Shown here: positions 2,000 through 55,922 of the stretch, piece after piece
Position numbering within the stretch: position 1 is the first letter of the stretch
How the letters are laid out: every line of letters begins with the position of its first letter
NCBI RefSeq assembly: GCF_964213995.1
Contig: NC_135805.1
Coordinates: forward strand, 76,818,001-76,882,000
DNA: 64,000 bases
Source: Mustelus asterias
Taxonomy: Eukaryota
Direction of reading: 5' to 3'
The notes under the pieces: model-generated
Told to the model about the DNA's origin: nothing
Database searches by the model: none
The model's input: only the letters and a program-made list of their open reading frames with translations
Program-made: the position numbers and the translations under genes

Positions 2000-2090
2000 G
2001 GAAAACATTGGAAATTTTCAGAAGGTCTGGCAGCATTTGTGGAGAGAGAAACAAAACTAACATTTCAGGTCTGTAACCTCTCATCAGAAC
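2000..2090 (-). repeat. Left arm of an old fold-back (PLE-derived) repeat containing a hammerhead motif
   Basis: Inverted relative to 7145-7260. The reverse strand of 2056-2090 reads gtt-CTGATGA-g-aggtt-aca-gacct-GAAA-tg-TT-agt. Confidence 0.65.
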
Positions 2091-2739
2091 ATAGGGCTCG
2101 ATTTTACCATCAAGCTGCGCTCATTTTCGGGCGTGAAAACTTGTGAAAGTTGGGTGTGAGGCGAGTAGCGCGATCCGTGCCTGCGTCCTCACCAGTTCCC
2201 CCTTTACAAAGGCCTGAAAATGGATGCAATTGGATATTTGTATGTATTTAAATTGACTCAACTTTACCAGGAATTCACCCTTTACCACTGTGTTCGCCAA
2301 TCCGGAATCGGTGGAAACGGACATGCTCAATAAAAGTCTGATTCGGGCGCTCCATCAGTGAGGGTTAGTGAGGAGGTAAGTGCGAAGCATCCGATGGCTC
2401 TCTGCTGCTTACGGGTGTCCTTTCATTGTGGCCATTTTCTTTCTCAGGTTGGTGGGGGCTCTGCGAGTGCGTGGGGAGGTGGGGGGGGGGGGGCTGTTGC
2501 TCAGCAGGGTCTCCGATGTCCAATTTGCAGCACGGACCCGGGTCTCAGCACTGACCTCGTGTCTTGTGGTGCTGCTGGGTCCTAGTGCACTCAGCACTCT
2601 GCCAGCTGAAGGATGTGCACAAAGCACTTGGAAATTCCACTGCTGCAGCCTCTCAACTTTTCAAGGAACTGTGATTGTGGGGAACATGTGACTGGGGGAA
2701 TTGAGAGGGCTGTGATTGTGGGGAACATGTGGTTGGGGG

Positions 2740-4136
2740 AATGGGCAGTATGGACAGTGACTGCTGATGGGCTAGTGGCAAGCTGCAGCAAGCCCGGTGG
2801 GGGCCGCAGGAGAAGGAGGGAGCAGAGACCCCGGCAGTTCTGTGCATGAGTGTCATTTGAACAGATGTCGGACACCGTGTTCTGCCGATGTCTCCGCCTC
2901 CGAAAGGAGACAGTGCAACACCTGTGCCACTTGTTGCAGGACCTGGCACCTAGAGGCGGTGGGGGGGGGGGGGGTGGTGAGGGTGTGCACCCACTCTCGG
3001 TGCTGTTAAATTGACATCAGCTCTGAACGTTTATGTGACTGGCTCCTTCCAGACCCCGAGCGGAGATGTCGGTGGCATCTCCCAATCAGCTATGCACACC
3101 TGTGTCAAGCCGGTCACAGAAGTCCTGTATGCCCGGGATGGGCAGTACATCGAATTTAAATTGGGCCAGGCCCATCAGGAAGCCCGGGCTGTAGGGTTCG
3201 CAGCCATCACGGGCATGCCTAACGTGCAGGGGGGTCATCGACTGCACCACGTCGCCCTCAAGGCCCCGAATGAGGCATGCGAGGACAGCTAGGGATGCCC
3301 TGATCACCCAGTTGGTTCAGTGGCTAGGGGCTTGTGTCTGTGGGTTCCATCCCCCATCCCCATCCAAGTCCTTCTATCTCCTACAGAATCCATGGAGATT
3401 CATCAACAGAAAGGGGTTCCACTCCCTGAATGTTCAACTAGTGTGTGACCATAGTATGAACATTATGCACGTCTGTGCAAGACACTCAGGCAGCGTGCAC
3501 AATAGATTCATTGTCGGGAGCTCGGACACCCCGGACACATTTGAGGAGGAGCCCAGGCTGCGGGGGTGGATTGTGGGTGATATGGGTTACCCGCTTTGGA
3601 CATGGCTGATGACGCCTGTGCAGAGGCCTGTGTCTGAGGCGGAGTCGTGCTATAATGAGGCCCATGTAGCCACCCGTGCGATAGTGGAGAGGTGCACAGG
3701 GCTCCTTAAAATGAGATTCCAGTGCCTGGACCGATCTGGTGGAGCCCTCCAATACAGCCCTGTGATCTCTTCCCGCATTGTGGTGGTGTGCTGTGCCCTG
3801 CACAACCTGGCTCTGCAGAGAGGTGACCTATTGGAGGAGGAGGACGTGGAGGCTGACCAGCCGGGCATCGCTGGGGAGGAGATCACTCAGCAGGAGGAGG
3901 AAGAAGAAGAGGAGGAGGAAGAAGACGAAGAACACGCCTTGGAACCCCACCCAGGCACTGGAGGGCTGGCAGCTCGAATGAGGCATGCGAGGACAGCAAG
4001 GGAGGCCCTGATCACCCAGTTGGTTCAGTGGCTAGGGGCTTGTGTCTGTGGGTTCCATCCCCCATCCCCATCCAAGTCCTTCTATCTCCTGCAACATTGT
4101 CACACCAGAATGGTGGGCCTGGGTACGCTGCGTTAA
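2740..4136 (+). pseudogene. Harbinger (HARBI1-like DDE) transposase, disrupted
   Basis: Motifs seen: LNVYVTGSFQ, GISQS, QG(VID)CTHVAL (frameshifted), NRKGFHSLNVQLVCD, GDMGYPL..WLMTP, YNEAH..TR..VER..GLLKMRF.CLD and CCALHN. It carries a stop, frameshifts and a 116-bp insertion. Confidence 0.92.
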
Positions 4137-10126: not shown

Positions 10127-10129
10127 TTT

Positions 10130-22415: not shown

Positions 22416-23353
22416 AACATAGAACATAGAACAGTACAGCACAGTACAGCCCTTCAGCCCTTGATGTTGTGCCGAGCTTTGTCCGAAACCAAGATCAAGC
22501 GATCCCACTCCCTATCATTCTGGTGTGCTCCATGTGCCTGTCCAATAACCGCTTGAAAGTTCCTAAAGTGTCCGACTCCACTATCAAAGCAGGCAGTCTA
22601 TTCCACACCCCAACCACTCTCTGAGTAAATCATAGAAACCCTACAGTGCAGAAGGAGCCATTCGGCCCATCGAGTCTGCACCGACCACAATCCCACCCAG
22701 GCCCTACCTCCACATATTTTACCCGCTAATCCCTCTAACCTACGCATCCCAGGACTCTAAGGGGCAATTTTTTTTAACCTGGCCAATCAACCTAACCCGC
22801 ACATCTTTGGACTGTGGGAGGAAACCGGAGCACCCGGAGGAAACCCACGCAGACACGAGGAGAATGTGCAAACTCCACACAGACAGAGACCCGAGCCGGG
22901 AATCGAACCCGGGACCCTGGAGCTGTGAAGCAGCAGTGCTAACCACTGTGCTACCGTGCCGCCCCTCGGACATCCTTCCTGTATCTCCCACCATGAACCT
23001 TATAGTTATGCCCCCTAGTAACAGCTACATCCTCCCGAGGAAATAGTCTCTGAACGTCCACTCTATCTATCCCCCTCATCATCTTATAAACCTCTATTAA
23101 GTCGCTTCTCATCCTCCTCCGCTCTAAAGAGAAAAGCCCTAGCTCCCTCAACCTTTCCTCATAAGACCTACCCTCCAAACCAGGCAGCATCCTGGTAAAT
23201 CTCCTTTGCACTCTTCCCAATGCTTCCACATCCTTCTTATAGTGAGTGACCAGAACTGCACACAATATTCCAAATGTGGTCTCACCAAGGTCCTGTACAT
23301 TTGCAGCATAACCCCACGACTCTTAAACTCCAACCCCCTGTTAATAAATGCTA
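22416..23353 (-). mobile_element. CR1/HER1 LINE, 5'-truncated, interrupted by an HE1 SINE
   Basis: (atagaac)n tail at ~22412-22432. Reverse-strand peptides YRTLVRPHLEYCVQFW and VQRRFTRMLPGLEG. Confidence 0.92.
22629..22964 (-). mobile_element. HE1-type SINE, full length and young
   Basis: The reverse strand begins gggcggcacggTAGCACAGTGGttag...GGTTCGATTCCcgg (intact Pol III A and B boxes). CpG-rich, with a CR1-like tail. Confidence 0.93.
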
Positions 23354-23354
23354 T

Positions 23355-23900
23355 GAGTGATGGGAACTGAAGGACAAGTAAATGGAAGGCGCCCCAGGGT
23401 GGAAAGGGTAGGGAACACCTGGAGGATCTTGAGGTGGGCGATCAGGGTCTTGGGGGTAAGCCGGTTGGGGGTGGGGGTGGGGGGGGGGGAGGTCCAGAGG
23501 TCATTGGGCCTCAAGAGGAGGGCACCCCCCTTAAAGCAAAAGGGGACAGCTGATAGAGGCTTCCCTTTCCCTTCTTGCTCAAATCACCCCCTGAGTCGTC
23601 ATCCACTCATCACCCTAAATATTGAGGCTGGGTGCTTAAGGACCTTAATTGGGGCAAAGGTGGTCTTCTGTCAGAGGCCCTGCCCACCCCACTGTAAAAT
23701 GGCTACCAAGTTGGTGCAGGTGTGATCCCAGAGGGAAACACCACCATGAAATTTCACACTCTTCACATTCTTTGCTCCCACCTCCCCCCCGACTCCCCCA
23801 CTCCCACCCCTACCCATCTCAGAATCGACCAGGGGGAGTCGGGTGGGGGGGAGGAAGGTCCAGAGGTCATTGAACCTCAAGAGGAGGGCACCCCCTTTAA
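23355..23900 (+). repeat. Dispersed direct copy of 24447-24917 plus a second short copy of ~24565-24623
   Basis: Long near-identical match, visible in the DNA and in the paired ORF translations at 23357 and 24449. Confidence 0.95.
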
Positions 23901-23939: not shown

Positions 23940-23984
23940 CTAGAGCCAACCACCAATGCCATACCAATGGAAACTCAGCCATAA
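23940..23984 (-). CDS. TMEM244: TMEM244 coding exon (45 bp if the GTAAG donor is used)
   Basis: ttttcag|TT ATG GCT GAG...GCT CTA G|gtaag. Translates to (V)MAEFPLVWHWWLALG, matching the TMEM244 EFPL..HWW.ALG motif. In frame with the preceding exon. Confidence 0.92.
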   Translation of the reverse strand, partial: LWLSFHWYGIGGWL

Positions 23985-24940: not shown

Positions 24941-25862
24941 TTTTTCTGACTCTGATCAGATGAAAGAATACACACATAGCTTCCTCCAATTTTTCTGAGT
25001 GATCTTCCAATCGAAGACCTTTCACATGCAACTCAGTGCGGGAAATCTCACAGGGAACAATGCAGAGAATCTGTATAGAAACTACATCCCCTTCTTACAG
25101 CACTAGCTGTCATATTCTGAAGAAGGAATTTAAATGTCCCAAAAACTACAGAGGGAAGGTAAATGTGTAAGTTAAATGGGTAAGGTGATAGGGCGGTAGA
25201 TGGTAGGGTGACAGGGTTGCTAGGATGATAGGTGAATGGGATGGTAGGTAGGTGAGGTGGGTAGATGGGTGAGGTGGATTGGATGGCAGGTGGTTGGGAT
25301 GGATGAGGAGAATAGGGTGGCATGTGGATAGGTAGGTGAGATGAGTGAGGTGGCAGGTGGGTAGTTGTGGGGGTGGTTAAGGTGGCAGGTAGGTGAGTGG
25401 ATAGGTAGGTTGTGGGTAGTTGGGTCAGGCTGGATTGAAGGGGTATGGAGTCGGGTCGGGGATTAGTCAGATCAGGTTGGATGGCTGGTCAAATTGGATC
25501 AATGGGGCAATCAGGGGCTTGGGGGAGTGGAAGGTGGAGGCCAGTCAGGTGTGTCAGGGGGTTCATAGAGTCGTCAGAAGTGTCAGGGGTTTGGGACATT
25601 TAAATTCCTTCTTTAGAATATGACAGCTAGTGCTGTAAAAATGGTAAACTGGGTTAGTTGGCTAGCCAGGGAGTAGTCAGGGATCAGTGTGAATGATTGG
25701 GGGTGGGGGGGGAGGGGGGGGGATGCAGTCAGTACTAATAGTTACAGATATAATTGCATGTATACACAGAATTATATGGACCATCTTGCTGTGACTTTTA
25801 TGGGAGATCAACAAAACACCAAGCGCAAAGGTGTAAAAGCTTGTTTTTCCTGTTTTTTTCTG

Positions 25863-26027
25863 ATGTGGAGATGCCGGCGTTGGACTGGGCTAAGCACAGT
25901 AAGAAATCTCACAACACCAGGTTAAAGTCCAACAGGTTTATTTGGAATCACGAGCTTTCGGAGCGCTGCTCCTTCATCAGGTGAATCACTCAGCGCTCTG
26001 AAAGCTTGTGGTTCCAAATAAATCTTA
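25863..26027 (-). mobile_element. Penelope-like pLTR 3' fragment with a short inverted arm
   Basis: Matches the 3' end of the PLE at 30000-30099 in reverse. Flanked by ctgtttttttctg / ctgcttttttctg (12/13 TSD). Confidence 0.85.
25948..25984 (-). ncRNA. Minimal type I hammerhead ribozyme motif
   Basis: tcac-CTGATGA-a-ggagc-agc-gctcc-GAAA-gc-TC-gtga: perfect stems I and II, intact core, CUC cleavage triplet. Confidence 0.85.
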
Positions 26028-26851
26028 CTGCTTTTTTCTGGGAGTTTTCTAAACCTCACAACCAATATATGGAAATTGAGTCAAACTCCATTGCAGAATA
26101 CAATTAGGTATAATGAATGCATGTTATGTACCCAAATGTTAATGATTACTGCTCATATAGTGAAAGATTTAATTACAGTCCTTTAACTGTCTCAATGATT
26201 AGCTTATCATCACTTCATCATTCTATTTCACTGGTTGAACCCATGCTAAATTTGCACCTATGCAAGTACAAATATTAATCCATACATAGATGTAACAAAT
26301 ACATTTTATTTTTCAGCATATACATGCATCTAGATAATTAATGTACAGTTCAGCTAATCAGGTAAAATGCCTTCGCTTCGATAAGTCAATGAAGAGATCC
26401 AATGTCACATCCAAGATCCAGAGATGGTGATGAACATATAGAAGAGGTGCTGAGCATGTCAGTCACAGAAAAGGAACTGTCAGAACTGTTTCATTAAAGT
26501 CTTGTTCTGTGCACTGTCTCATTGGATCCAGTAAATTTACACAGTGAATAACTGAGCCATTCTGATCTGGAGGTGTCGGGTAAATCCACAGTCTTCACTG
26601 AGTTAGCGGATCACAGCCAGGGTGGAAGCAGATTAGGGAGGAGATAATTGGCCAATATAGGAAACAATCCCTGGAAACTGGGAAACACTGCAATTCAGAA
26701 GGGGGTTGGAGTAGCAATCAGGAGGGATAAAAACAGAACGTGCTGGAAAAACTCAGCAGGTTTACCAACAAACAACTGGCTGATCATTTGATCCAGCAGT
26801 GGGGAGCAGCATTTTCACGGAGTGCATCTTAGGTTCTGCTGAGAACACCAT

Positions 26852-28162: not shown

Positions 28163-28672
28163 CATATCATGGAATCAACCCTTTGAATTGAAGAATATTA
28201 GATATAGTAGATAAAGAAGTCAAGATGCAAGCCTGAGTGTACAATGCCCCTTCGCAGCATTGGAAATGAAATCATTTTACTCTGGCTGCATTTTGTAATA
28301 TGTAATTTCAGGCATGAAATGAGCTTCATTATAGCAAGTGTAAGCTTCATTAGAATTGTTCAATTATTAAGATCATTTGGCCCACTGTGTCTGTGCCAGC
28401 TCATTGAAAGGGCTATCCAATTAGCCTCACTCCCCTGATCTTTCCTCACACCCCTGCAATTTGTCTTCTTTTCAAGTATTTATTTCATTCCATTTGAAAT
28501 TTGCTACTGAATCTGCTTCCACCACATTTTTTCAGGCAATGCATTCTAGCTCAGAACAAATTGCTGCCTAAAATAATTCTCACCTCCTCTCGAATTCTTT
28601 TGCCAATTATCTTGAATCTATATCCTTGTTTACTGACTCTTTACTGAATCACTGAATCACTGAATCTTTACT

Positions 28673-29719
28673 GAATCACTGAAACAACTCTATGATGACA
28701 TCAACAAGTTCCATCCCACCATCAGGCTCACCATAGACTACTCTCCGGAATCGGTTGCATTCTTGGACACGCGCATCTCCATTAAGGACGGTCACCTCAG
28801 CACCTCACTGTACCGCAAGCCCACGGATAACCTCACGATGCTCCACTTCTCCAGCTTCCACCCTAAACACGTTAAAGAAGCCATCCCCTACGGACAAGCC
28901 CTCCGTATACACAGGATCTGCTCGGATGAGGAGGATCGCAACAGACACCTCCAGACGCTGAAAGATGCCCTCATAAGAACAGGATATGGCGCTAGACTCA
29001 TTGATCAACAGTTCCAACGCGCCACAGCGAAAAACCGCACCGACCTCCTCAGAAGACAAACACGGGACACAGTGGACAGAGTACCCTTCGTTGTCCAGTA
29101 CTTCCCCGGAGCGGAGAAGCTACGGCATCTCCTCCGGAGCCTTCAACATGTCATTGATGAAGACGAACATCTCGCCAAGGCCATCCCCACACCCCCACTT
29201 CTTGCCTTCAAACAACCGCACAACCTCAAACAGACCATTGTCCGCAGCAAACTACCCAGCCTTCAGGAGAACAGTGACCAAGACACCACACAACCCTGCC
29301 ACAGCAACCTCTGCAAGACGTGCCGGATCATCGACACAGATGCCATCATCTCACGTGAGAACACCATCCACCAGGTACACGGTACATACTCTTGCAACTC
29401 GGCCAACGTTGTCTACCTGATACGCTGCAAGAAAGGATGTCCCGAGGCATGGTACATTGGGGAAACTATGCAGACGCTGCGACAACGGATGAATGAACAC
29501 CGCTCGACAATCACCAGGCAAGACTGTTCTCTTCCTGTTGGGGAGCACTTCAGCGGTCACGGGCATTCGGCCTCTGATATTCGGGTAAGCGTTCTCCAAG
29601 GCGGCCTTCGCGACACACGACAGCGCAGAGTCGCGGAGCAGAAACTGATAGCCAGGTTCCGCACACACAAGGACGGCCTCAACCGGGATATTGGGTTTAT
29701 GTCACACTATTTCACATAA
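28673..29719 (+). CDS. PLE polyprotein fragment: RT C-terminal/thumb region, Cys-rich linker and GIY-YIG endonuclease (uninterrupted frame)
   Basis: Peptides INKFHPTIRLT, FLDTRI, LYRKPT, IPYGQALRIHRICS, CHSNLCKTC and NVVYLIRC..C...YIGET...LRQRMNEH. Confidence 0.9.
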   Translation, partial: ESLKQLYDDINKFHPTIRLTIDYSPESVAFLDTRISIKDGHLSTSLYRKPTDNLTMLHFSSFHPKHVKEAIPYGQALRIHRICSDEEDRNRHLQTLKDALIRTGYGARLIDQQFQRATAKNRTDLLRRQTRDTVDRVPFVVQYFPGAEKLRHLLRSLQHVIDEDEHLAKAIPTPPLLAFKQPHNLKQTIVRSKLPSLQENSDQDTTQPCHSNLCKTCRIIDTDAIISRENTIHQVHGTYSCNSANVVYLIRCKKGCPEAWYIGETMQTLRQRMNEHRSTITRQDCSLPVGEHFSGHGHSASDIRVSVLQGGLRDTRQRRVAEQKLIARFRTHKDGLNRDIGFMSHYFT

Positions 29720-30000
29720 ATATTTCTGCTTTTTTCCTCCTGAGTCTTTATCATGCGATCCTAGAATCAGAATTTATGTCACACTATTTGTAACTCCCAC
29801 AGTTGCGTGGACCTGCAGAGTTTCACTGGCTGTCTTGTCTGGAGACAATACACATCTTTTTAGCCTGTCTTGATGCTCTCTCCACTCCCATTGTTTTGTT
29901 TCTTAAAGACTGGATTAGTTGTAAGTATTCGCATTCCAACCATTATTCATGTAAATTGAGTCTGTGTCTTATAAGTTCTGTTTGTGAACAGAATTCCCAC

Positions 30001-30039
30001 TCACCTGAAGAAGGGGCTCAGAGCCTCGAAAGCTTGTGT
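30001..30039 (+). ncRNA. Minimal hammerhead ribozyme motif in the PLE pLTR
   Basis: tcac-CTGAAGA-a-ggggc-tcaga-gcctc-GAAA-gc-TT-gtg. Confidence 0.8.
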
Positions 30040-30233
30040 GGCTTTTGCTACCAAATAAACCTGTTGGACTTTAACCTGGTGTTGTTAAACTTCTTACTGA
30101 CTCTCCTGCCAGTGGAAACACTTTCTTATTTATTATACTTTTGTACACCTTAATTAAGCCTTCCCTCAATCTCCCCATTTGAAGCAGAACAGTCTCACGT
30201 TCTCCAGTATCTTCCCATGAACTGAAATCCCTT

Positions 30234-33601: not shown

Positions 33602-33727
33602 CTGTTGAGGTGACTGCAACATGAATAAGAGTAACTGTAATGGCATAATCCCAAACCCATTCTTTAACCACTCCAGCAAACAGCAACCCACTGACAAAGT
33701 AAGTCATCTCCATTGAGATCAGGTTGA
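33602..33727 (-). CDS. TMEM244: TMEM244 internal coding exon (126 bp)
   Basis: ctttcag|TC AAC CTG...TCA ACA G|gtaag. Translates to (V)NLISMEMTYFVSGLLFAGVVKEWVWDYAITVTLIHVAVTST, with the characteristic EWVWDYAI motif. Phase 1-1. Confidence 0.95.
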
Positions 33728-35546: not shown

Positions 35547-35823
35547 TGATGCGCGATTGATCCACACGGGAGACAAGGTCGTACCCGGGAATAAAGACTT
35601 TTATTCACAACAAGAATAGAGCATACTGCTTAACAATACTATCCCAGACTAAGGGCTACTAGGAAGTAGCAGTGACCTTTATACCCCTGTAAGAAGGCAG
35701 GGCCAAACGGAGTGTACCACAGAACAATGCTAACAGGTGGAACACCCCAACCCTAACCCCAACAGCAACACGAATAACATATGTACAAGTACCCATAGTG
35801 GTAACCATCTATGGTTCACCACA
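35547..35823 (-). repeat. Gypsy 3' LTR
   Basis: Direct repeat of 39896-40172, adjacent to the PPT. Confidence 0.97.
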
Positions 35824-35899
35824 TTCACCCCTCCTTTGAAAACAAAGGCCGGCAGGGTAAGGAGACAATACGAACTGTCCATATCTTCACAAGTTTAGC

Positions 35900-38800
35900 C
35901 GTATCGGAGGTCCGCACCGTCTCTGCGACCTCCGCAGTACCGGCTCCGGTGTCGGTTCTGGTGACCGTGGTGATGACCCTCTCTCCGAGGTGGTGTCCAG
36001 TGACTTCTCCAGTTCCTCACACACCTGTGGACCTCAAGGTGGCGACAATCTCCTGGACTCAGGCAAGCTGTACACGGGAGTAAGAGGATTAAGTTGAGGT
36101 CCCGATGCTGGCCGTGTCGAGTCAGGAGGGGAGAGAATGGACAAAGGAATCCTAACCAGGCGTGCGGGAGTGACGGGAATGTCCAGGTCCCCTGCAGGCG
36201 CCAGATCTCTGATAGAGACCGTGTCCTCTCGCCCATCAGGATATGCCACATAGGCATATTGAGGGTTGGCGTGGAGGAGATGGACCTGTTCAACCAAAGG
36301 GTCGGACTTGCGGGCCCTAACATGCCGCCGCAGGAGGACAGGTCCTGAGTACGTCAACCAAGACGGCAGTGAGGTCCCAAAGGAAGACTTCCTAGGGAAG
36401 GTAAACATCCGCTCATGTGGGGTAGCGTTGGTTGCCGTACACAGGAGGGATCGGATTGAATGGAGCGCATCAGAAAGTACCTCTTGCCAACGGGAGACTG
36501 GAAGACCCTTAGACCTCAACGCCAGTAAAACAGCTTTCCAGACTGTAGCGTTTTCTCTCTCGACCTGTCCGTTACCCCTGGGGTTGTAACTCGTAGTCCT
36601 ACTCGAGGCAATTCCCTTAGAGAGCAGGTATTGCCTCAAGTCGTCGCTCATAAATGACGAACCCCTATCACTGTGGATATTACTGGGGTAACTGAACAGG
36701 GTAAAGAGACCCCACAGGGCTTTGATGACCATGGCAGAGGACATATCAGAACATGGGATGGCAAAAGGGAATCGGGAGTACTCATCAACCACGTTGAGGA
36801 AATACACGTTCCGATCTGTAGAAGGAAGGGGCCCCTTGAAGTCGACACTCAGTCATTCAAACGGGCGAGTGGCCTTAATGAGGTGTGCCCTGTCAGGCCG
36901 GTAGAAGTGCGGCTTGCATTCTGCACAAACTTGGCAACTTCGAGTTATCGACCTGACATCCTCGATGGAGTAGGGCAGATTGCGAGCCTTTACAAAATGG
37001 AAAAACCGAGTGATCCCCAGATGGCAGAGATCATTGTGGAGGGCCAGTAACTGGTCCTCCTGCACACTGGCACATGTTCCACGCGACAGGGCATCTGAGG
37101 GCTCATTGAGCTTCCCTGGACGGTACATGATATCATAGTTGTAGGTGGAGAGTTCGATTCTCCACCTCAAGATTTTATCATTCTTTATGTTCAACAACAC
37201 GTTAAAAGGGAAAATCAAGGCCACGGACATCTGGTCCGTGAGCAGGGTAAACCGTTTACCAGCCAAATAATGGCGCCAATGCGTACGGCCTCCACAATGG
37301 CCTGGGCCTCTTTTTCCACAGAGGAGTGCCGAATTTCAGGGCCTTGGAGAGTGCGGGAGAAAAAGGCGACGAGCCTGCCCGCCTGGTTAAGTGTGGCGGC
37401 CAGGGCGAAATCAGATGCATCACTCTCCACCTGAAAGGGGATGGACTCATCGGCAGCGTGTATCGTGGCTTTCGCGATGTCGGCCTTCATCCTTTCAAAG
37501 GCTCGGCGAGCCTCTGTTGTCAGGGGAAAAGAGGTAGATTTTATGAGCGGACGGGCTTTGTCCGCGTAATTGGGGACCCACTGTGCATAGTACGAGAAGA
37601 AGCCTAAGCATCTTCTCAGTGCTTTGATGCTAGTGGGTAGGGGAAGTTCAAGGAGGGGACGCATACGGTCTGGATCAGGGCCGATGACCCCGTTTTCCAC
37701 CACGTATCCGAGGATTGCTAGGCGGTGCTTGCTGAATACGCACTTCTCCTTGTTATAGGTCAGGTTCAGGAGATTTGCAGTGCGTAGAAACTTCTGGAGG
37801 TTGGCGTCATGGTCCTGCTGGTCATGGCCGCAGATAGTGACGTTGTCCAGGTATGGGAAGGTAGCCCGTAGCCCGTTTTGGTCCACCATTCGGTCCATCT
37901 CGCGCTGGAAGACCGAGACCCCATTAGTGACGCCGAAAGGGACTCTCAAAAAGTGGTAGGGACGGCCATCCGCCTCAAAGGCCGTGTATTTGCGGTCCTC
38001 TGGGTGAATGGGGAGCTGGTGGTAGGCTGACTTCAAGTCGATGGTGGAGAACACCCGGTACTGCGCAATCTGGTTGACCATGTCAGATATGCGCGGGAGA
38101 GGGTACGCGTCCAGCTGCGTGTACCTATTAATGGTCTGACTATAGTCTATGACCATCGGGGGCTTGTCTCCAGTCTTGACCACCACGACTTGTGCTCTCC
38201 ATGGGCTAGTGCTAGGTTGGATGACCCCTTCCCTGAGGAGCCGCTGAACCTCAGATCGAATAAAGATCCGATCCTCAGCGCTGTAACGCCTGCTCTTAGT
38301 CGTGATGGGCTTGCAGCCTGGCATGAGATTTTCAAATAGGGAAGGCAGGGTAATTTTGAGTGTCGAGAGACTGCATGTGGAGCGCGCTGGACAATTTGGA
38401 GGCTGCTGTGTTCCCACTGAAAGAGGAGGGAGTGGCCCATCGTACTGCAGGGTCACACTCCTCAGGTGGACCATAAAGTCTAGCCCCAGGAGTACCGGAG
38501 CGCAAAGGTGCGGTAACACGAGGAGCCTGAAGTTCTCATAAACTGTGCCCCGCACCGTTAAGGTTACCACACAGCTCCCAAGAACGACTATAGATCGGGA
38601 CCTCAACGCCATGGAGATTGTCTGCCTGACAGTTTGCACATGGAGAGCGCACCGTTTCACTGTATCCGGATGGATAAAGCTCTCCGTGCTCCCGCTGTCA
38701 AACAGGCAATGAGCCAGACGTCCGTTTACCTCAATGTCCATCATGGACTTGTCGAGTCTGTGAGGCTTGGCCTGGTCCAGGATGATTGACGCCACTGTTG

Positions 38801-39851
38801 GATCCCAAGTGTAACTGCAGGCAGCTGAGATAGCCGACGACGAGGACCCCTGCTGGTCTTCTGCGGCCGGTGTCGACCAAAATGGCTGCGCCCACGGATC
38901 GCACGTGGTTGATGATGTCGAAAATGGCGGCACCCGCAGGTTGCACGTGGCTTGCGTCGTCGTCATAGGAAATGGCGGCGTCCGTGGCTCGCACGTGGCT
39001 GAAGACATCGACAAGGCCGGAGACGAGGAGATGGATCCTGGGGAGTCACACGCAGCACTGCTGGGCTTGGAAGGGGTCTTTGCTCGGCACAGTTTTGCAT
39101 AGTGCCCTTTCTTTCCACAGGCGGAGCAAAACACCGTCCTGGCCGGACATCTCTGACAAGAGTGCTTCGCCAATCCACAGAAATAGCACCGTGGGCCTCC
39201 AGGAGCTGCCGCAGCCGTCAGGTCTGAAGCTGAGAGCATGATCGCGCAGTTCCGAGGAGCCGCCGAGTACAGTTGAGGCGGTGGCTGTGCTTGCCATGCT
39301 GTTCCCACGTGGTCAGTGGGGTAGGTTTCGAGATTTCTGGAGGCCGTTTCCATTGCATCGGCCAATTCTACCATCTTAGCCAGGTCCAAGTTACCCTGTT
39401 CGAGCAGCCGCAGGCGAATATAGGATGAGCCGATTCCCGCCACGAACGCGTCTCGGATAAGATCGTTGGTGTATTGAGTAGCCGACACCTCCTTGCAGTT
39501 GCAGGCTCTGGCTAGCTATTGAAGTTCGCGCAGGTACTGTCCCGTAGTTTCACCGGGCTGCCGCCGTCGAGTGGCTAATAGGTGATGAGCATGGATTTCG
39601 TTCGGCTGTTTATGGTACAGCTTCTTGAGTAATTCGATGGCCTCTTTGTAATTTTGGGAATCACAGATTGTTGCATACACAGTGTCGCTCACCCTGGCGT
39701 GGAGGACCCGCAATCTGTCGGCGTCGGACTGGACTGCTGTCGAGACGTCGATGTAATCTTCAAAACACTTCAACCAATGGTCGAAAGTGTTTGACACTCC
39801 AGCTGCACGCGGATCTAAGGTTAGCCGATCGGGTTTCAGCATCTACTCCAT
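35900..39851 (-). pseudogene. Gypsy single-frame gag-pol, disrupted
   Basis: Zinc knuckles (CSACGKKGHYAKLC), protease LFDSGS, RT IDLKSAYHQ / PFGVTN / YLDN, RNase H SDASD, integrase HHCC and D..D..E (VDFKG, HSDRG, QVERE). In-frame stops near 39844, 39517 and 36854; frameshift near 37280. Confidence 0.95.
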
Positions 39852-39895
39852 TTTTCTTCGAACAAAATTTTTGATTTTATTGTTGTGAATAAAAT

Positions 39896-40172
39896 TGATG
39901 CGCGATTGATCCACACGGGAGACAAGGTCATACCCGGGAATAAAGACTTTTATTCACAACAAGAATAGAGCACACTGCTTAACAATACTATCCCAGACTA
40001 AGGGCTACTAGGAAGTAGCAGTGACCTTTATACCCCTGTAAGAAGGCAGGGCCAAACGGAGTGTACCACAGAACAATGCTAACAGGTGGAACACCCCAAC
40101 CCTAACCCCAACAGCAACAAGAATAACATATGTACAAGTACCCATAGTGGTAACCATCTATGGTTCACCACA
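39896..40172 (-). repeat. Gypsy 5' LTR (TATAAA and AATAAA on the minus strand)
   Basis: Direct repeat of 35547-35823, upstream of gag. Confidence 0.97.
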
Positions 40173-41870: not shown

Positions 41871-43041
41871 GATAACCATTCAAGGAATTTACATGATGAC
41901 GACACAATAGAAAATTTAAGTAAGAGAAACTGACATATTTTCCACAATTTCAAGAATCAAACAAACAAGAGATTACTTTAAACAGCAAGGGAAGGTCTGT
42001 CATTGGGTCCTGCAATTACACTATATAACAATTACATTGTTAAACCAATTGCATTGTTAAAGACATGTGATAAGCATTGGATAACCTATAAATTGACACA
42101 TTTATTTCATTTTGCTTCAGAAGAGTATAAATGGACACAGCTGTAACAGTGAGGGTTGAAGAAATGAGGAGAGTGTGCCACTTTTGTTAAATGTCTCATG
42201 AACAAATCCGCTTGAGGGAAAAGACTAACTTTAAGCTTATTCTTCCGTTGTATATGATTATTGTAATTAACATGGCTAAGCAGCATTGTAATAGGTGGGG
42301 GCATGAGTTGGCAGAGGGGCCCTGGAGAGTGGATGAGAAGGCAGTTAGTGCGAGGGGCTATAGGGTCCAACAGTTTTTGTTCCAAATGGGGCAAATGTTT
42401 GCGACGGGCCCTTTTAAGCCAAGGGGAGTCTACTGACTTGGGAAATTTACTGACTTGAGCTGATTGCCTTGGCAGTGAAAATCCAGCACTCAGAGTAGTG
42501 AGATTTGGAGACTGTATTTTAGTTTAGTTTGAAAATTTGCCAATGTATTTACTCATCTATCTCCTTCCAACAATGTAACAGCTCTTTCTTGCTTCTTTAA
42601 CCTAAGCTGAATAAATTCAGTGCAATGAAGGAAAATTGGAACAACTTCCGTTTCATTGCCAGATCTGTGTTTTCCTCTCATCAGCCCCAGCAGTAGCATC
42701 ACAGTCAGATTTATCATTGCCTGTTATGTGATCTTAGTCCAATGCAATCCTCCTGGCGATGATGTTCAGGGTTCTGATTCATTCACCAGTGATGGAGAAG
42801 ATGGATATTCAGTCCAGTTGCACTGATTAAATGAAATGTTAATCATTGAAGCAATTGAAGATGGCTGAACTCAAGGAACTCCTTTAGTGATGACCTAGTG
42901 CTGCGATGGTTAACTTTCTGTTACCAAACTATCTTTCTTTGTGCTTGGTATAATCCTACTTCAGTGTTTTCCCTGGATGTTCGCAGTAAGAAGTCTCTCA
43001 ACACCAGGTTAAAGTCCAATAGGTTTATTTGGTAGCAAAAG

Positions 43042-43078
43042 CCACTAGCTTTCAGAGCGCTGCCCCTTCGTCAGGTGA
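43042..43078 (-). ncRNA. Minimal hammerhead ribozyme motif
   Basis: tcac-CTGACGA-a-ggggc-agc-gctct-GAAA-gc-TA-gtgg. Confidence 0.8.
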
Positions 43079-43244
43079 GTGGGAGTTCTGTTCACAAACA
43101 GGGCATCTAAAGACACAAACTCAATTTACAAAATAATGGTTGGAATGCGAGTCTTTACAGGTAATTAAAGACTCACATTCCAACCATTATTTTGTAAATT
43201 GAGTTTGTGTCTTTATATGCCCTGTTTGTGAACAGAACTCACAC

Positions 43245-43281
43245 TCACCTGACGAAGGGGCAGCGCTCTGAAAGCTAGTGG
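43245..43281 (+). ncRNA. Minimal hammerhead ribozyme motif
   Basis: Identical to the motif on the opposite arm. Confidence 0.8.
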
Positions 43282-43480
43282 CTTTTGCTACCAAATAAAC
43301 CTGTTGGACTTTAACCTGGTGTTGTGAGACTTCTTTACCCCAGTCCAACATCGGCATTTCCACATCATGACTTCCCTGGATGTTGTCAGGGATTGGATGA
43401 CCTAGAAAATCTGATTTATTCTTGTCCATCAATTTTTAAATCATTTGTGGGAGAGGGGCATTGTTGGCTAGGCCAGCATT

Positions 43481-47655: not shown

Positions 47656-47729
47656 CCATGTATTTTGAGCTTGGGAATGATGGTTCTGTTTTGAAATCAA
47701 ATGGTATCAGAACATCATATGTTTCAAGC
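47656..47729 (-). CDS. TMEM244: TMEM244 internal coding exon (74 bp)
   Basis: The minus strand reads ttttccag|G CTT GAA ACA...TAC ATG G|gtaag and translates to LETYDVLIPFDFKTEPSFPSSKYM. This matches the PFDFKT.PS motif I recognise from vertebrate TMEM244. Its phase-1 end joins the next exon in frame. Confidence 0.93.
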
Positions 47730-47936
47730 CTGGAAAAATATAATCAACATTTTTATAGCAGAATTTCAACAATACACTTACTGGAGTATAAACAAATACT
47801 GAAATATAACAGAAACAGCATGATCCAATGACTAGAGATGAGTGATATTATTCTACATAACAATCACGCTCACAGTACCCTAAACTCTTTATTAAATTTT
47901 TAACAAGAAAGAAGAAAATATTAAAACATTTTTAAT

Positions 47937-48815
47937 ATGGTCGTCCGGGAGGCTCCTAGCCTCCCGGACGACCATATCTGTGCTGGGTGTGTTGAGCTGC
48001 GGTTCCTAAGGGACCATGTTAGGGAACTGGAATTGCAGCTCGAGGACCTTCGCCGGGTTAGGGATAGTGAGGAGGTCATTGACAGGAGCTATCGGCAGGT
48101 GGTCACACCGGGACCACGGGAGGAGGGTAACTGGGTAACAGTGAGGAAGGAGAAAGCTCGGTTGATGGTGAGCACCCCGGTGGATGTGCCCCTTAATAAT
48201 AAGTACTCCTGTCTGAGTACTACTGGGGTGGACAGCCCACCTGGGGGAAGCAGCGGTGGCAGTGTCTCTGGAGCTGAGCCTGGCCCAGTAGTGCAAAAGG
48301 GTAAGGAAAGGAGGGTAGTGCTAATTGGGGACTCTACGGTGAGGGGGTCAGATAGGCATTTTTGCGGACACAGACGGGACTCTCGGATGGTGGTTTGCCT
48401 CCCTGGTGCAGGGGTCCGGGATGTCTCTGGTCGAGTCCCAGAAATCCTGAAGGGGGAGGGAGAGGAGCCGAAAGTCGTGATGCATATAGGTACTGCTGAC
48501 ATAGGTAGGAAGAGGGAAGGGGTCATGAAAAGAGAATATAGGGAGTTAGGTAGACAGCTGAGAAAGAGGAATGCAAAGGTAGTAATCTCGGGATTGCTGC
48601 CTGTGCCGCGGGAGAGTGAGAACAGGAATCGGTGGAGAATGAATGCGTGGCTGAGGGACTGGAGCAAGGGACAAGGATTTGGGTACTTGGATCATTGGGA
48701 CCTCTTTAGGGGCAGGTGTGACCTGTTTAAAAAAGACGGGTGGCACTTGAATCCCAGGGGGACCAATATCCTGGCGGGAAGGTTGGCTAAGGCTACTGGA
48801 GAGACTTTAAACTAG
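47937..48815 (+). CDS. CR1 ORF1 (partial zinc finger/coiled coil plus SGNH/GDSL esterase-like domain), 5'-truncated
   Basis: HICAGC, a leucine heptad, VLIGDS, CLPGA, HIGT.D and DGWHLN..G motifs. Confidence 0.92.
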   Translation: MVVREAPSLPDDHICAGCVELRFLRDHVRELELQLEDLRRVRDSEEVIDRSYRQVVTPGPREEGNWVTVRKEKARLMVSTPVDVPLNNKYSCLSTTGVDSPPGGSSGGSVSGAEPGPVVQKGKERRVVLIGDSTVRGSDRHFCGHRRDSRMVVCLPGAGVRDVSGRVPEILKGEGEEPKVVMHIGTADIGRKREGVMKREYRELGRQLRKRNAKVVISGLLPVPRESENRNRWRMNAWLRDWSKGQGFGYLDHWDLFRGRCDLFKKDGWHLNPRGTNILAGRLAKATGETLN

Positions 48816-48820
48816 AAAGG

Positions 48821-51734
48821 TTGGGGGGAGGGAATCGAAATGAGGGGACTGAGAGCGAGGAGGTTAGCTCGCAAATAGATAAGGAATGTAAACAGGGTAA
48901 GAGGGAGGTTAGACGAGTGATGGAGAAGGGAAGTGCTCAGGCTGAAGGTCTGAGATGTGTCTATTTTAATGCCAGGAGTGTAGTGAATAAAGTGGATGAG
49001 CTTAGAGCGTGGATTGCTGCTTCGAATTGTGATGTGGTGGCCATTACGGAGACTTGGATGTCTCAGGGACAGGACTGGGTGCTTCAGGTGCCGGGTTTTA
49101 GATGTTTCAGGAAAGACAGGGAGGGAGGCAAGAGAGGGGGGGGAGTGGCACTGTTGATCAGGGATAGTGTCACGGCTGTAGAGAAGGCGGACGCCGTGGA
49201 GGGATTGACTACGGAGTCTCTGTGGGTGGAGGTTAGGAACAGGAAGGGGTCGGTAACGTTGCTGGGTGTTTTCTATAGGCCGCCCAATAGTAACAGAGAT
49301 GTTGAGGAGCAGATGGGGAAACAGATCCTGGAGAGATGTAGGAATAACAGAGTTGTCGTGATGGGAGATTTTAATTTCCCAAACATAGATTGGAATATCC
49401 CTAGGGCTAGGGGTTTGGATGGAGAGGAGTTTGTTAGGTGTGTCCAGGAGAGTTTCCTGACACAGTATGTGGATAAGCCTACTAGAGGAGAGGCTGTACT
49501 TGATCTGGTGCTGGCTAATGAACCTGGACAGGTGGAGGATCTCTCGGTGGGTGAGCATCTTGGGGATAGCGATCATAATTCTATCTCCTTCACGATAGCA
49601 TTGGAAAGAGATAGGATCAGGCAGGCTAGGAAAGTGTTTCTCTGGAGTAAAGGGAAATACAGTGTCATCAGGGAGGAAATTAGACGGGTAAATTGGAAGG
49701 AGGCATTCTTGGGGAAAAGTACCGAAGGAAAGTGGAGGATTTTCAAGGAATGTTTGTCTGGAGCTCTGCATGACAACGTTCCGATGAGACAGGGGGGTGT
49801 TGGTAGGGTACGGGAACCGTGGTGCACGAAGGTTGAGATGAACCTGGTGAATAAGAAAAGAGAGGCGTACAGAAGGTTCAGAGAGCTAGGAGGTGTTAAG
49901 GATTTAGAGGAGTATACGGGATGTAGGAAGGAGCTTAAGAAGGAAATTAGGAGAGCGAGAAGGGGGTCATGAGAAGGCCTTGGCGGGTAAGATTAAGGAG
50001 AATCCCAAGGCTTTCTACAAATATGTCAAGAGTAAAAGGATGAGATGTGAAGGCATAGGACCCTTAAAAGGTGAAGGGGGAAAAGTTTGTGCGGAACCGT
50101 TAGAAATGGCGGAGCTGCTTAATGAATACTTTACCTCGGTATTCACGGTGGAAAGGGATCTGGGTGGTTGTACTGCTGGTTTGCGGTGGACAGAAAGGAT
50201 CGAGCATGTGGACATAAAGAAAGAGGATGTGTTGGAACTATTGAATGGCATCAAGGTTGGTAAGTCGCCGGGACCGGATGGGATGTACCCCAGGTTACTG
50301 TGGGAGGCGAGGGAGGAGATTGCGGAGCCTTTGGCGATGATCTTTGCATCGTCGATGGAGACGGGAGAGGTTCCGGAGGATTGGAGGATTGCAGATGTGG
50401 TCCCTATATTCAAGAAAGGGAACAGGGACAGCCCGGGAAATTACCGACCGGTGAGTCTAACCTCAGTGGTTGGTAAGTTGATGGAGAGGATCCTGAGAGA
50501 CAGGATTTATGATCATCTAGAGAAGTTTAGTATGATCAAAAGTAGTCAGCACGGCTTTGTCAAGGGCAGGTCGTGCCTTACGAGCCTGGTTGAGTTCTTT
50601 GAATATGTGACCAAACACATTGACGAAGGAAGAGCGGTGGATGTGGTCTATATGGACTTCAGCAAGGCGTTCGATAAGGTCCCCCATGCAAGACTTCTTG
50701 AGAAAGTGAGAGGGCATGGGATCCAAGGGGCTGTTGCCTTGTGGATCCAGAACTGGCTTGCCTGCAGAAGGCAGAGAGTGGCTGTGGAGGGGTCTTTCTC
50801 TGCATGGAGGACAGTGACCAGTGGAGTGCCCCAGGGATCTGTTCTGGGACCCTTGCTGTTTGTCATTTTCATAAATGACCTGGATGAGGAAGTGGAGGGA
50901 TGGGTTGGTAAGTTTGCTGACGACACCAAGGTAGGTGGTGTTGTGGATAGTTTGGAGGGATGTCAGAAGTTGCAGCGAGACATAGATAGAATGCAAGACT
51001 GGGCGGAGAAGTGGCAGATGGACTTCAACCCGGATAAGTGTGTGGTGATCCATTTTGGCAGATCCAATGGGATGAAGCAGCAGTATAATATGAAGGGTAC
51101 CATTCTTAGCAGTGTAGAGGATCAGAAGGACCTTGGGGTCCGGGTCCATAGGACTCTTAAATCGGCCTTGCAGGTGGAGGATGCGGTCAAGAAGGCGTAC
51201 GGCGTACTGGCCTTCATTAATCGAGGGATTGAGTTTAGGAGTCGGGAGATAATGCTGCAGCTTTATAGGACCCTGGTTAGACCCCACTTGGAGTACTGCG
51301 CGCAGTTCTGGTCACCTCATTACAGGAAAGATGTTGAAGCCATTGAAAGGGTGCAGAGGAGATTTACAAGGATGTTGCCTGGATTGGGGGGCATGCCTTA
51401 TGAGGATAGGTTGAGGGAGCTTGGTCTCTTCTCCCTGGAGAGACGAAGGATGAGAGGTGACCTGATAGAGGTTTACAAGATGTTGAGAGGTCTGGATAGG
51501 GTAGACTCTCAGAGGCTATTTCCAAGGGCTGAAATGGTTGCTACGAGAGGACACAGGTTTAAGGTGCTGGGGGGTAGGTACAGAGGAGATGTCAGGGGTA
51601 GGTTTTTCACTCAGAGGGTGGTGGGTGAGTGGAATCGGCTGACGTCGGTGGTGGTGGAGGCAAACTCGTTGGGGTCTTTTAAGAGACTTCTGGATGAGTA
51701 CATGGGATTTAATGGGATTGAGGGCTATAGATAG
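48821..51734 (+). CDS. CR1 ORF2 (APE endonuclease plus RT) with one +1 frameshift at the G run 49962-49966
   Basis: NARS, ITETW, YRPP, GDFN and SDHN; then NYRPVSLTS, DFSKAFD, PQGSVLGP and FADD. The two ORFs join if one G is removed (RARRGHEK). Confidence 0.93.
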
Positions 51735-52107: not shown

Positions 52108-54373
52108 TTAGAACCATAGAAAACCATAGAAAATTACAGCTCAGAAACAGGCCAGTTGGCCCTTCTTGTCTGTGCCGAACCATTTTATGCCTAGTCCCAC
52201 TGACCTGCACTTGGACCATATCCCTCCACACCCCTCTCATCCATGAACCCGTCCAAGTTTTTCTTAAATGTTAAAAGTGACCCCGCATTTACCACTTTAT
52301 CCGGCAGCTCATTCCACACTCCCACCACTCTCTGCGTGAAGAAGCCCCCCCTAATATTCCCTCTAAACTTTTCTCCTTTCACCCTTAACCCATGCCCTCT
52401 GGTTTTTTTCTCCCCTAGCCTCAGCGGAAAAAGCCTGCTTGCATTCACTCTATCTATACCCATCAAAATCTTATACACCTCTATCAAATCTCCCCTCAAT
52501 TTTCTACGCTCCAGGGAATAAAGTCCCAACCTATTCAATCTCTCTCTGTAACTCAGCTTCTCAAGTCCCGGCAACATCCTTGCGAATCTTCTCTGCACTC
52601 TTTCAATCTTATTTACATCCTTCCTGTAACTAGGTGACCAAAACTGTACACAATACTCCAAATTCGGCCTCACCAATGCCTTAAATAACCTTACCATAAC
52701 ACTCCAACTTTTATACTCGATACTCCGATTTATAAAGGCCAATGTACCAAAGGCACTCTTTACGACCCTATCCACCTGTGACGTCACTTTTAGGGAATTC
52801 TGTACCTGTATTCCCAGATCCCTCTGTTCAGCTGCACTCTTCAGAGTCCTACCATTTACCCTGAACGTTCTTCTTTGGTTTGTCCTTCCAAAGTGCAATA
52901 TCTCACACTTGTCCGCGTTAAACTCCATTTGCCATTTTTCAGCCCATTTTTCTATTTGGTCCAAATCCCTCTGCAAGCTTTGAAAACCTTCCTCACTGTC
53001 CACTACACCTCCAATCTTTGTATCATCAGCAAACTTGCTGATCCAATTTACCATATTATCATCCAGATCATTGATATAGATGACAAACAACAATGGACCC
53101 AACACCGATCCCTGCGGGACACCACTAGTCACAGGCCTCCACTCAGAGAAGCAATCCTCCACAACCCCTCTCTGGCTTCTTCCATTGAGCCAGTGTCTTA
53201 TCCAATTTACTACCTCCCCATGTATACCTAGCGACTGAACCTTCCTAACTAACCTCCCATGAGGGACCTTGTCAAAGGCCTTGCTGAAATCCAGGTAGAC
53301 AACATCCACCGCCTTCCCTTCATCCACTTTCCTGGTAACCTCCTCGAAAAACTCTAATAGATTGGTCAAACATGACCTACCACGCACAAAGCCATGTTGA
53401 CTCTCCCTAATAAGTCCCTGTCTATCCAAATATTTGTAGATCCTATCCCTTATCACACCTTCCAATAACTTGTCCACCACCGACGTCAAACTTACTGGCC
53501 GATAATTTCCAGGAGTTCTTTTGGAACCTTTTTTAAACAACGGAACAACATGAGCCACCCTCCAATCATCCGGCACCTCCCCCGTGAATACGGACATTTT
53601 AAATATGTCTGCCAGGGCCCCTGCAAGTTCAACACTAGCTTCCCTCAAGGTCCGTGGGAATACCCTGTCCGGTCCTGGGGATTTATCCACTCTGATTTGC
53701 CTCAAGACAGCGAGCACCTCCTCCCCTTTAATCTGTAAAGCTTCCATGGCCTCCCTACCAGTTTGCCCTATTTCCGTAGACTCCATGCCCGTTTCCTCAG
53801 TAAATACGGGTGCAAAAAAACCATTTAGTATCTCCCCCATCTCTTTTGGTTCCATACACAGTGTACCACTCTGGTCTTCAAGAGGACCAATTTTATCCCT
53901 CACTATCCTTTTGCTCCTAACATACCTATAGGAGCTCTTTGGATTTTCCTTCACTCTGTCTGCCAAAGCAACCTCATGTCTTCTTTTAGCCCTCCTGATT
54001 TCCCTCTTAAGTAGCTTCTTGCACTTTTTATACTCCTCGAGCATCTGATGTGTTCCTTGCTGCCTGTACATTTCATACAACTCTCTCTTCCTCTTAATCA
54101 GTGTTACAATCTCCCTCGAGAACCAAGGTTCCTTATTCCTATTTACTTTGCCTTTAATCCTGACAGGAACATACAAACTCTGCACTCTCAAAATTTCTCC
54201 TTTGAAGGCCTCCCACTTTCCATTTACATCCTTACCAGAGAACAGCCTGTGCCAATCCACACTTCCCAGATCCCTTCTCATTTCATCAAATTTGGCCTTT
54301 TTCCAGTTCAGAACTTCAACCTGAGGACCAGATCTATCCTTATCCACGATCAGGTTGAAACTAATGGCATTGT
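52108..54373 (-). mobile_element. 5'-truncated CR1/HER1 LINE with an uninterrupted ORF2 frame (52191-54373)
   Basis: Complete RT motifs (FADD) and a (ccatagaa) tail. The first ~27 aa of the listed 754-aa ORF come from flanking DNA. Confidence 0.96.
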
Positions 54374-55667
54374 TGTTCCATTTAGATTGTTTTCCCATTT
54401 TGCATCCAAAACCTACCACCACAGAATTGAAAATAGAGGATGGTGATTCAATCATTATCTGTTCTAAACTCTGTCAGATGAAGACAGAGATAATTGACCA
54501 ACTTGGCTATCTACCTCTAGCTCTGTATTTTCCTATGTTTCAAACATTTATCTAATTTTCCTTGATAGTTTTTATACATTGCTGGCACAATTTCAACCTT
54601 TGGGTTAGACTATACAATTTTGCAGTTTCCTATTCTGTTCGTTACATCCCCTAGATCAATAAACAGCCTAAGAATTTTCTTTGGCGCTCGTGGGGTCCCC
54701 AGAATTTTCTCAGCTCACAGCACACGTTCTCGAGTGCCAGCCCACAAGTGTTGCCTTTCATTATAACAGGCCCAAGTGCTAGCTAGCTCAGTGTGGGAGC
54801 TGGCTGAATTTCCACATTCTGAATTGATGAACCACTGCAGGGCATCTAATTGGCACCCCTGCCCCTCAGATGGCATGGTAATGAGATCTGGATCGTGAGA
54901 TGAGCTCAGGCCTCACACTGGTACAACCAGACAGACAGAGGTTAGTCTGTTGACTTCACACCTATTTTGGATACTTCTTGGCTCTTGAAGAATCTTACAG
55001 GTTCATAACTCTTTGGCCTGTCACTATTGAATGCCACATAGAAAAGAATCCTGTAGCAAAATGCTTATGGGCTATTCCAGTCACAATTGTGCAATTCTGT
55101 TGTGGGGAATGGGAGAATTGTATCCAGGAAGAACTGCACCCATCTCCTCAGAAATTTGCATGTGTGGATATGATTCATGTGGGTCCAATTTTAACAAACA
55201 GTGGGGCTTTCCAAAGGGACGATATATTAGGAAAATTTGGATATATTTTTTCGAATTTTGAACCTTTGTTCTCTTCTGGCCCAGATTTTATGGTCAGCAG
55301 CAAAGGAAGGCTTCATGACTTCAAAGAAAACTGCAGCGAGAAATTCAACTTGCCCACTGTTTAATTGATTGTAGCTTTGGTTAAAAAGGATTCCCAGTGT
55401 TAAGCAGCAGAGATGTCATCATGTTGTATAAGCAACTGATCATATTAAAGAACTGTTATGGGAAGCAAACCAAGAAAGCCAAAGCACCAATAATCAAATC
55501 ATTTCTTAAACTTTAATAGAAAACAAAATAATTGTTGGGTGTTAAAGTAGAAACTGAAATATCAATTACAATCATTTTTAAAATCTAGTCATTAGAAATA
55601 TAGTAACACAGAAAGAAAAGCAGCACAGAGAGGACATTTTGCCCATGTCCATGCCTGCATTAATCAT

Positions 55668-55922
55668 GATGTGGAGAACACACATCTCTTTAACCTGTGT
55701 TTAATGCTCCCTCCACCCACATTGTCTGTACCTTTAAGACCTGGCAGGTTGTAGGGATTCGCATTCTAATCAGTATTCTGCAACTTGATTTTGTGTCTGT
55801 TTGCACTGTTTGAGAGCACATTTCCCCTCCATCTGACGAAGGAGCAGCGCTCCGAAAGCTTATGGTATTTGCTACCAAATAAACCTGTTGGACTTTAACC
55901 TGGTGTTGTGAGACTTCTTACA
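55668..55922 (+). mobile_element. Penelope-like pLTR fragment
   Basis: Exact 11-bp TSD gcattaatcat (55657-55667 / 55923-55933). Starts with a short inverted terminal piece (gatgtggaga). 3' end matches the other PLE tails. Confidence 0.9.
55829..55865 (+). ncRNA. Minimal hammerhead ribozyme motif
   Basis: ccat-CTGACGA-a-ggagc-agc-gctcc-GAAA-gc-TT-atgg. Stem I shows compensatory changes versus tcac/gtga. Confidence 0.85.

Follow-up and report, generated by a model that had tools for sequence, protein, structure and literature searches.

A 64,000-nucleotide stretch of the Mustelus asterias genome (NCBI RefSeq assembly GCF_964213995.1, contig NC_135805.1, positions 76,818,001 to 76,882,000; this whole stretch is called the window, its first letter being position 1) carries six hammerhead ribozyme motifs. 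Most probably, these are minimal type I hammerheads residing in the end repeats of Penelope-like elements (PLEs) and acting only in the RNA of full-length elements, with the copies in the window being inert passengers. Five of the six motifs are, judged by their sequence, stubs of the end repeats (pseudo-long terminal repeats, pLTRs) of one young PLE retrotransposon family, here called family 1, while the sixth belongs to an older family 2. Minimal hammerheads of the same kind have already been published in the pLTRs of metazoan PLEs (Cervera and De la Pena 2014, PMC4209133), to which a further lineage is added here; this and all following comparisons refer to the available portions of the cited papers. 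Whether and why PLE minimal hammerheads cut in cells has been left open by published work, and a young family with many copies affords a genomic readout of this question, as the positions of its junctions could be used to test both cleavage and two-site priming without experiments at the bench; intact full-length copies that would suit assays are also present.

A first-pass annotation of the window, made from the letters alone, had reported six minimal hammerhead motifs on both strands of what it named the TMEM244 region. All six are present on the strands and at the coordinates it gave, each with its core and both stems (Table 1; motifs are named after the lower coordinate of their core). Their layout comprises CUGANGA, one extra purine, a stem II of 5-6 bp, GAAA, two nucleotides, UH and a stem I of 3-4 bp, and of the window's 21 CUGANGA..GAAA candidates no others passed both stem tests. 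The extra nucleotide that separates positions 9 and 10.1 is A in five window copies and G at 2059, and a 15.1-16.1 palindrome replaces helix III, namely AGCU in family 1 and ACGU (or decayed AUGU) in family 2. Pair G10.1-C11.1 has decayed to GU in both copies near 43 kb (CpG decay) and to AU at 2059. The six motifs correspond to five insertions, as 43046 and 43249 sit on opposite arms of a single one. Core, helices, extra nucleotide, palindrome and pLTR setting all agree with the class proposed in the annotation, minimal type I hammerheads of PLEs, with the link of family 2 to PLEs being weak. An Rfam covariance-model scan of the window returned no hammerhead family up to E=5, and folding z-scores of single motifs ranged from -1.3 to +1.3.

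The carrier of the family-1 motifs can be recognized from the surrounding sequence. Downstream tails and flanks of the five motifs are 77-95% identical among them, and directly upstream of motif 30005 lies an open frame of 351 amino acids that is 94% identical (326/346) to a full-length open reading frame (ORF) elsewhere. This ORF remnant comprises a reverse transcriptase (RT) thumb, a CX4CX2C linker and a GIY-YIG endonuclease motif, the latter with E=2e-4 and 22.0 bits, just below the cut-off of 22.6. Eight loci with long ORFs were fetched, of which L150 is a complete unit composed of pLTR-hammerhead, a 892-amino-acid ORF and a second pLTR-hammerhead in direct orientation (3,016 nt apart), plus an inverted copy; its ORF begins at the end of the long tail, about 100 nt downstream of the hammerhead. 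The full-length protein displays Pfam RVT_1 (E=7.8e-10), a DKG motif and the CX4CX2C linker, whereas GIY-YIG was not reported by Pfam in this protein and was recognized by eye. A single ORF with RT, a C-terminal GIY-YIG and two cysteines inside that motif, as in endonuclease-containing (EN+) PLEs, was thereby found. The CX2-5CxxC linker in front of the endonuclease, by which Craig et al. 2021 (PMC8557442) characterize the Neptune and Nematis clades, occurs in the window remnant as well as in the full-length ORFs, and on this linker motif family 1 would be placed with Neptune/Nematis-type EN+ PLEs, which also have a DKG RT along with a GIY-YIG at the C-terminus (Arkhipova et al. 2013, PMC3846280; Craig et al. 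2021). In a search with an RT segment, the best 150 of 26,548 candidates were 95-100% identical; hence, family 1 is young. It comprises at least four subfamilies, whose stem I reads cac/gtg (A), ccat/atgg (B), tcac/gtgg (C) and tcac/gtga (D). As a separate observation, family-1 tails contain AATAAA 13-19 nt past the predicted cut (30051-30056, 43291-43296, 55875-55880), which could serve as poly(A) signal and would then confound tests of strand bias in introns.

A genome-wide motif search, suggested by the annotation as a check, was run by pattern matching. The AGCU-type pattern yielded 150,130 matches in the 3.68-Gb genome (74,910 forward, 75,220 reverse), or one per 24.5 kb, versus 22 for the reversed pattern, and the ACGU/AUGU-type pattern 9,856 versus 305 in the control. 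Matches thus lie far above control and are not due to chance, and those of the second pattern back the annotation's idea that AUGU at 2059 is a decayed ACGU. A scan of 464 kb gave at least 17 matches versus 0 for the reversed and 0 for the complement-only pattern, with the regular expression missing some known copies. With about 150,000 matches genome-wide, the window is ordinary for this genome. By comparison, the largest vertebrate counts in PMC4209133 are approximately 4,000 (coelacanth) and 9,000 (Xenopus); in the covered text and supplementary files of that study, no shark is named and 5' junctions are not analysed with respect to the cut site. Likewise, no title or abstract was found on copies starting at the cut site or on shark PLE hammerheads in a literature search that covered subscription journals thinly, and Lunse et al. 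2017 may list cartilaginous fish.

The conservation of the ribozyme fold was evaluated on 23 hand-picked rows comprising lineage representatives and the five window copies. Here, 95.7% of cells are paired and both partners vary in 9 of 11 pairs, resulting in a covariation score of 0.725 which was reached by none of 500 shuffles, with slid controls not exceeding 0.14. Against this score it has to be held that the shuffle control ignores relatedness and that the rows were chosen by hand. Across them, G10.1-C11.1 is GC in 17, GU in 3 and AU in 3, and the palindrome centre flips from GC to CG between families 1 and 2; over all 158 intact-core copies among the fetched loci, pair 1.1-2.1 is UA in 84, CG in 52, UG in 13 and unpaired in 9. 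None of the 11 core positions varies among the 23 representatives and none of these has G at H17, the core being partly imposed by the search. The covariation consists of a few lineage-level events among source lineages. The stem covariation noted in the first-pass annotation is hence real between lineages, while two of its examples at 2059, gtt/agt and aggtt/gacct, seem to have arisen by decay of agtt/aact and aggtc/gacct, respectively. Regarding inserted copies, departures from the subfamily pattern were counted at 3/288 non-CpG sites of the core and at 24/1,057 of the tail (p=0.24), with 31 of the 40 copies entering the count and 9 left out because of truncation or gaps, so that the extra conservation of the core lacks significance; weak selection on inserted copies may exist, a point that runs counter to fully inert passengers. 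Selection on source elements is supported. As to the proposal that several PLE families keep this RNA under structural selection, the families amount to two, and selection is visible between source lineages but not on inserted copies.

Further evidence is provided by the anatomy of the insertions. In an unselected sample of 864 kb around the window, 40 family-1 copies were found, 26 of which (about two thirds) form 13 head-to-head pairs. Each of the 13 pairs joins one long and one short tail (p=9e-5), and so do 40 of the 42 adjacencies of a larger set, in part selected and overlapping, where the two exceptions were not true pairs. Ends of reverse transcription map to two fixed sites, located about 18 and 55 nt beyond the tail anchor, of which the outer lies at the ORF start codon. 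Insertions are mostly short and 5'-truncated, with the median copy extending no more than about 120 nt upstream from this anchor, and family-1 copies form a continuous truncation series from 41 to more than 1,600 nt that extends into the ORF. Among the 10 unpaired short-tail copies, four have a piece of the long tail in inverted orientation at the 5' junction; one of them is the copy at 55.8 kb, whose remnant measures about 12 nt. The subfamily C insertion of the window exemplifies a complete pair, as its arms (42988-43157 and 43166-43335) are 97% complementary and a 13-bp direct repeat, from 42969 and from 43372, bounds it. Fold-back of a long-tailed primary complementary DNA was considered as general source of the mirror arms and rejected, since long-tail and short-tail arms show no systematic difference in length (16/14/10) and a long-tail partner can accompany a short-tail arm that starts at +1 of the predicted cut.

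Family 1 thereby shows the pLTRs, the inverted 5' copy and the one-sided tail of EN+ PLEs. A one-sided tail and an inverted copy have already been published for PLEs (PMC3846280, PMC8557442), and Neptune/Nematis-type elements have in common with family 1 the pLTRs, the inverted 5'-truncated copy, a tail of 30-40 bp at one end and target duplications. What is added here is the count behind the rule of one long and one short tail in unselected pairs. The Poseidon element PAc from Anolis carolinensis (Frangieh et al. 2024, PMC11167929) likewise uses two internal RT start sites that define the tail, has both target strands cut and extended, and carries its hammerhead near the ORF start. However, the ORF of PAc begins inside the hammerhead, while that of family 1 begins about 100 nt farther on, where the long tail ends.

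Information on cleavage itself can be obtained from copies that start at the predicted cut site. A start was counted where the three bases upstream all depart from the element, and positions four bases upstream and four bases downstream served as controls. In subfamily A, 1,433 copies start at the cut site versus 240 four bases upstream, a six-fold step at the exact predicted bond, and subfamily B displays a three-fold step (747 versus 242) despite its different sequence; the result is a peak in A and a step, not a clear peak, in B. Among 100 listed starts in A (hand count), the base at -1 is T in 26, which is near background, and hence these copies start at +1; G occurs in about 25 of 100, without excess. 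All of the 20 loci examined in A are true 5' ends, and 1 of 20 loci in B is an insertion into an intact copy. In 24 of the 27 cut-start loci that have a partner arm, this arm begins at -4 or later. The excess of starts suggests that a minority of templates had already been cut and that some junctions were trimmed.

Several observations weigh against this view. The downstream controls are also high, with 1,043 starts in A and 910 in B. By hand count, 33 of the first 100 listed downstream starts in A are intact B-type copies, leaving about 700 which are shared with subfamily C, and in B about 35 of the first 100 listed represent one microhomology junction, leaving about 590. In addition, 3 of the 27 partner arms extend beyond the cut site by 16-97 nt. 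For PAc, no RNA sequencing reads ending at the cut site were found (PMC11167929), in contrast to the genomic copies of family 1 enriched for starts there, and hammerhead mutants do not affect insertion in vitro. The high downstream controls and an insertion without need for cleavage would fit hammerheads that never cut in vivo, the +1 excess then originating from RT pausing at the palindrome duplex, from transcription start or from microhomology, and the fold being kept as a protein-binding or folding signal. Such an explanation could also draw on the +1 base following a pyrimidine in subfamily A, which is initiator-like, and on Naiad elements, which thrive without canonical hammerheads (PMC8557442). 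Nevertheless, we regard it as rather unlikely, since it would have to account for a step at the exact predicted bond in A and its recurrence in B, for the base composition at -1 in A, for the core conservation described above, and for a protein-assisted cleavage that is lost in core mutants (PMC11167929).

Putative cleavage of a minority of templates can be combined with the insertion anatomy into the following mechanism. Based on published work, two motifs would pair via their AGCU (or ACGU) palindromes, thereby completing stem III, and would cut weakly after CUH, probably aided by the element's own protein; self-cleavage as a dimer is what we infer for this family by analogy. The endonuclease would then open both target strands and each end would prime at one of the two RNA sites, which we propose as the origin of the mirror-image stubs. 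Where the template had been pre-cut, as may apply to a few percent according to rough scaling, the copies would begin with the base that follows CUH. In host transcripts reading through an insertion, finally, the sense hammerhead would be silenced by pairing with the inverted arm. The full proposition that thousands of copies derive from hammerhead-cut RNA and form a fossil record of cleavage in vivo, that both arms are primed from one break at two fixed sites, and that the mirror architecture silences most intronic ribozymes, allowing the genome to carry about 150,000 of them, is one we consider evenly poised between right and wrong.

In a different scenario, the short copies would be a self-standing non-autonomous element, either a retrozyme or a short interspersed element, spreading as cut and circularized monomers. 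Very high copy numbers of type I hammerheads are indeed known from non-LTR retrozymes (126,247 in axolotl), which have been linked to PLE pLTRs and reported in one chondrichthyan (Cervera and De la Pena 2020, PMC7229834; Li et al., bioRxiv 10.64898/2026.07.22.740005). The short reach of the median copy and the scant upstream sequence common to family-2 copies, about 3-4 nt before the core, would also agree with it. Those retrozymes, however, are non-coding tandem repeats each with a hammerhead, of canonical type in axolotl, whereas the minimal motifs studied here sit in copies that are dispersed or head-to-head and continuous with a truncated coding element. As, moreover, 3' ends lie at the tail sites and not at the cut site, and no arrays of short monomers were seen in the 864-kb listing, in which no dedicated tandem-repeat search was run, this scenario is very unlikely.

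The 2059 motif belongs to family 2, for which 38 tails were found in the 864 kb, 3 of them with intact core, and in which a head-to-head pair occurs. Its tie to a PLE ORF is weak, consisting of one remnant of 27% identity (E=5e-5). The upstream nucleotides in common were determined on loci L216-L235; family-2 copies seem to begin at stem I and not at the cut site. The candidate explanation that an unrelated repeat had cut off the 2059 stub was dropped, as family-2 copies generally have no more sequence than that in common upstream of the core. A DNA search with the 2059 region returned a neighbouring unrelated repeat and not the hammerhead family. Locus L078, near window-relative position 137408 (+), carries the variant core UUGACAA (U3-A8 for C3-G8) in both arms of a head-to-head pair, which could reflect either a variant of the template, similar to one described in PMC4209133, or parallel CpG decay.

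Two of the motifs, 43046 and 25952, are sense to a host gene on the minus strand. Three of its exons, with AG/GT ends and a continuous frame, were located by TMEM244 motifs, and we take the gene to be TMEM244-like, following the name given by the earlier annotation. Pfam gave no useful match for two of the exons, and a Pfam SYS1 search gave no match in the window. A contig of run X1, from another organism and presumably RNA, joins 33602 to 23984 across GT..AG, while the junction from 47656 to 33727 is predicted from sequence. The subfamily A element is antisense to the gene. The annotation had proposed that the two minus-strand copies could dimerize in the TMEM244 pre-messenger RNA and cut it. 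Regulation of TMEM244 by such cutting would have been striking, and both copies indeed lie between exons, possess full cores and compatible AGCU palindromes, and motif 25952 in isolation folds as hammerhead. Yet they reside in different introns, separated by about 17 kb that include an exon, and in the transcript each follows its own inverted arm, to which it is predicted to pair. Motif 43046 would be embedded in a 170-bp hairpin (-322.9 kcal/mol, z -36), and 25952 would pair with the 35-nt inverted arm transcribed just before it (-70.1 kcal/mol, z -4.5), which is predicted to mask the 3' strand of stem II, GAAA and the palindrome. The unpaired probability of GAAAGCU in context is predicted at 0.02 or below for both copies, as opposed to a mostly open state in the isolated 25952 motif. 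Furthermore, 43046 has lost G10.1-C11.1 and does not favour the hammerhead fold in isolation, the palindrome duplex contributes only about -4.2 kcal/mol, and in vitro dimer activity is low, with no cleavage by the single motif (PMC4209133). The arrangement is also an ordinary one, as at the genome-wide density an average 100 kb of intron sequence holds about two sense copies. Dimerization and cutting in cis is thus hardly credible and not backed by the evidence; according to the folding predictions, the two intronic copies are likely locked in hairpins and harmless. Two further features of this gene region are a 484-bp direct duplication (94% identical) on both sides of the 45-nt exon (23353-23836 and 24445-24919) and an LTR retrotransposon at 35547-40172 (-) inside a host intron, with protease, RT, RNase H and integrase frames and 277-bp LTRs of 98.9% identity.

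Table 1 Hammerhead motifs, insertions carrying them and host exons in the window
Feature	Position	Strand	Details
Hammerhead cores	2087-2059(-), 25980-25952(-), 30005-30035(+), 43074-43046(-), 43249-43277(+), 55833-55861(+)		
Family 2 minimal hammerhead	2056..2090	-	ACGU palindrome decayed to AUGU; predicted cut 2059/2058; then family-2 tail to ~2000
Host exon	23940..23984	-	45 nt
Subfamily D insertion (approximate ends)	25861..26031	-	Hammerhead 25984-25948, predicted cut 25952/25951 after CUC; long tail; partial inverted arm 25991-26025
Inverted arm of subfamily D insertion	25991..26025	+	35 nt, 89% complementary to 25934-25968
5'-truncated PLE, subfamily A	28664..30099	+	ORF remnant 28664-29716, pLTR, hammerhead 30001-30039, predicted cut 30035/30036 after CUU; short tail
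Host exon, TMEM244-like	33602..33727	-	126 nt; best Atlas match SYS1-family cluster, 0.83 (lead only)
Palindromic insertion, subfamily C	42983..43371	.	Hammerheads 43078-43042(-) and 43245-43281(+); short tail left, long tail right
Host exon, TMEM244-like	47656..47729	-	74 nt, AG/GT, phase 1 at donor
Subfamily B pLTR stub	55665..55923	+	Hammerhead 55829-55865, predicted cut 55861/55862 after CUU; short tail; 11-bp direct repeat on both sides

Some minor observations concern individual PLE copies. The end of the PLE ORF in the subfamily A element is repeated 77 nt apart around unrelated sequence (29696-29789), and the 5' junction of this element at 28632-28685 is a slipped 8-nt repeat. At locus L153, several PLE copies are inserted in a long simple tandem array. 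Other repeats in the window include two facing long interspersed elements at 47925-51731 (+) and 52194-54473 (-), presumably of CR1 type, the first of which comprises a GDSL-like esterase ORF1, an endonuclease and an RT. A DDE_Tnp_4 transposase frame is located at 3195-4133 (+) and contains an internal 119-bp duplication (3267-3385 and 3975-4093).

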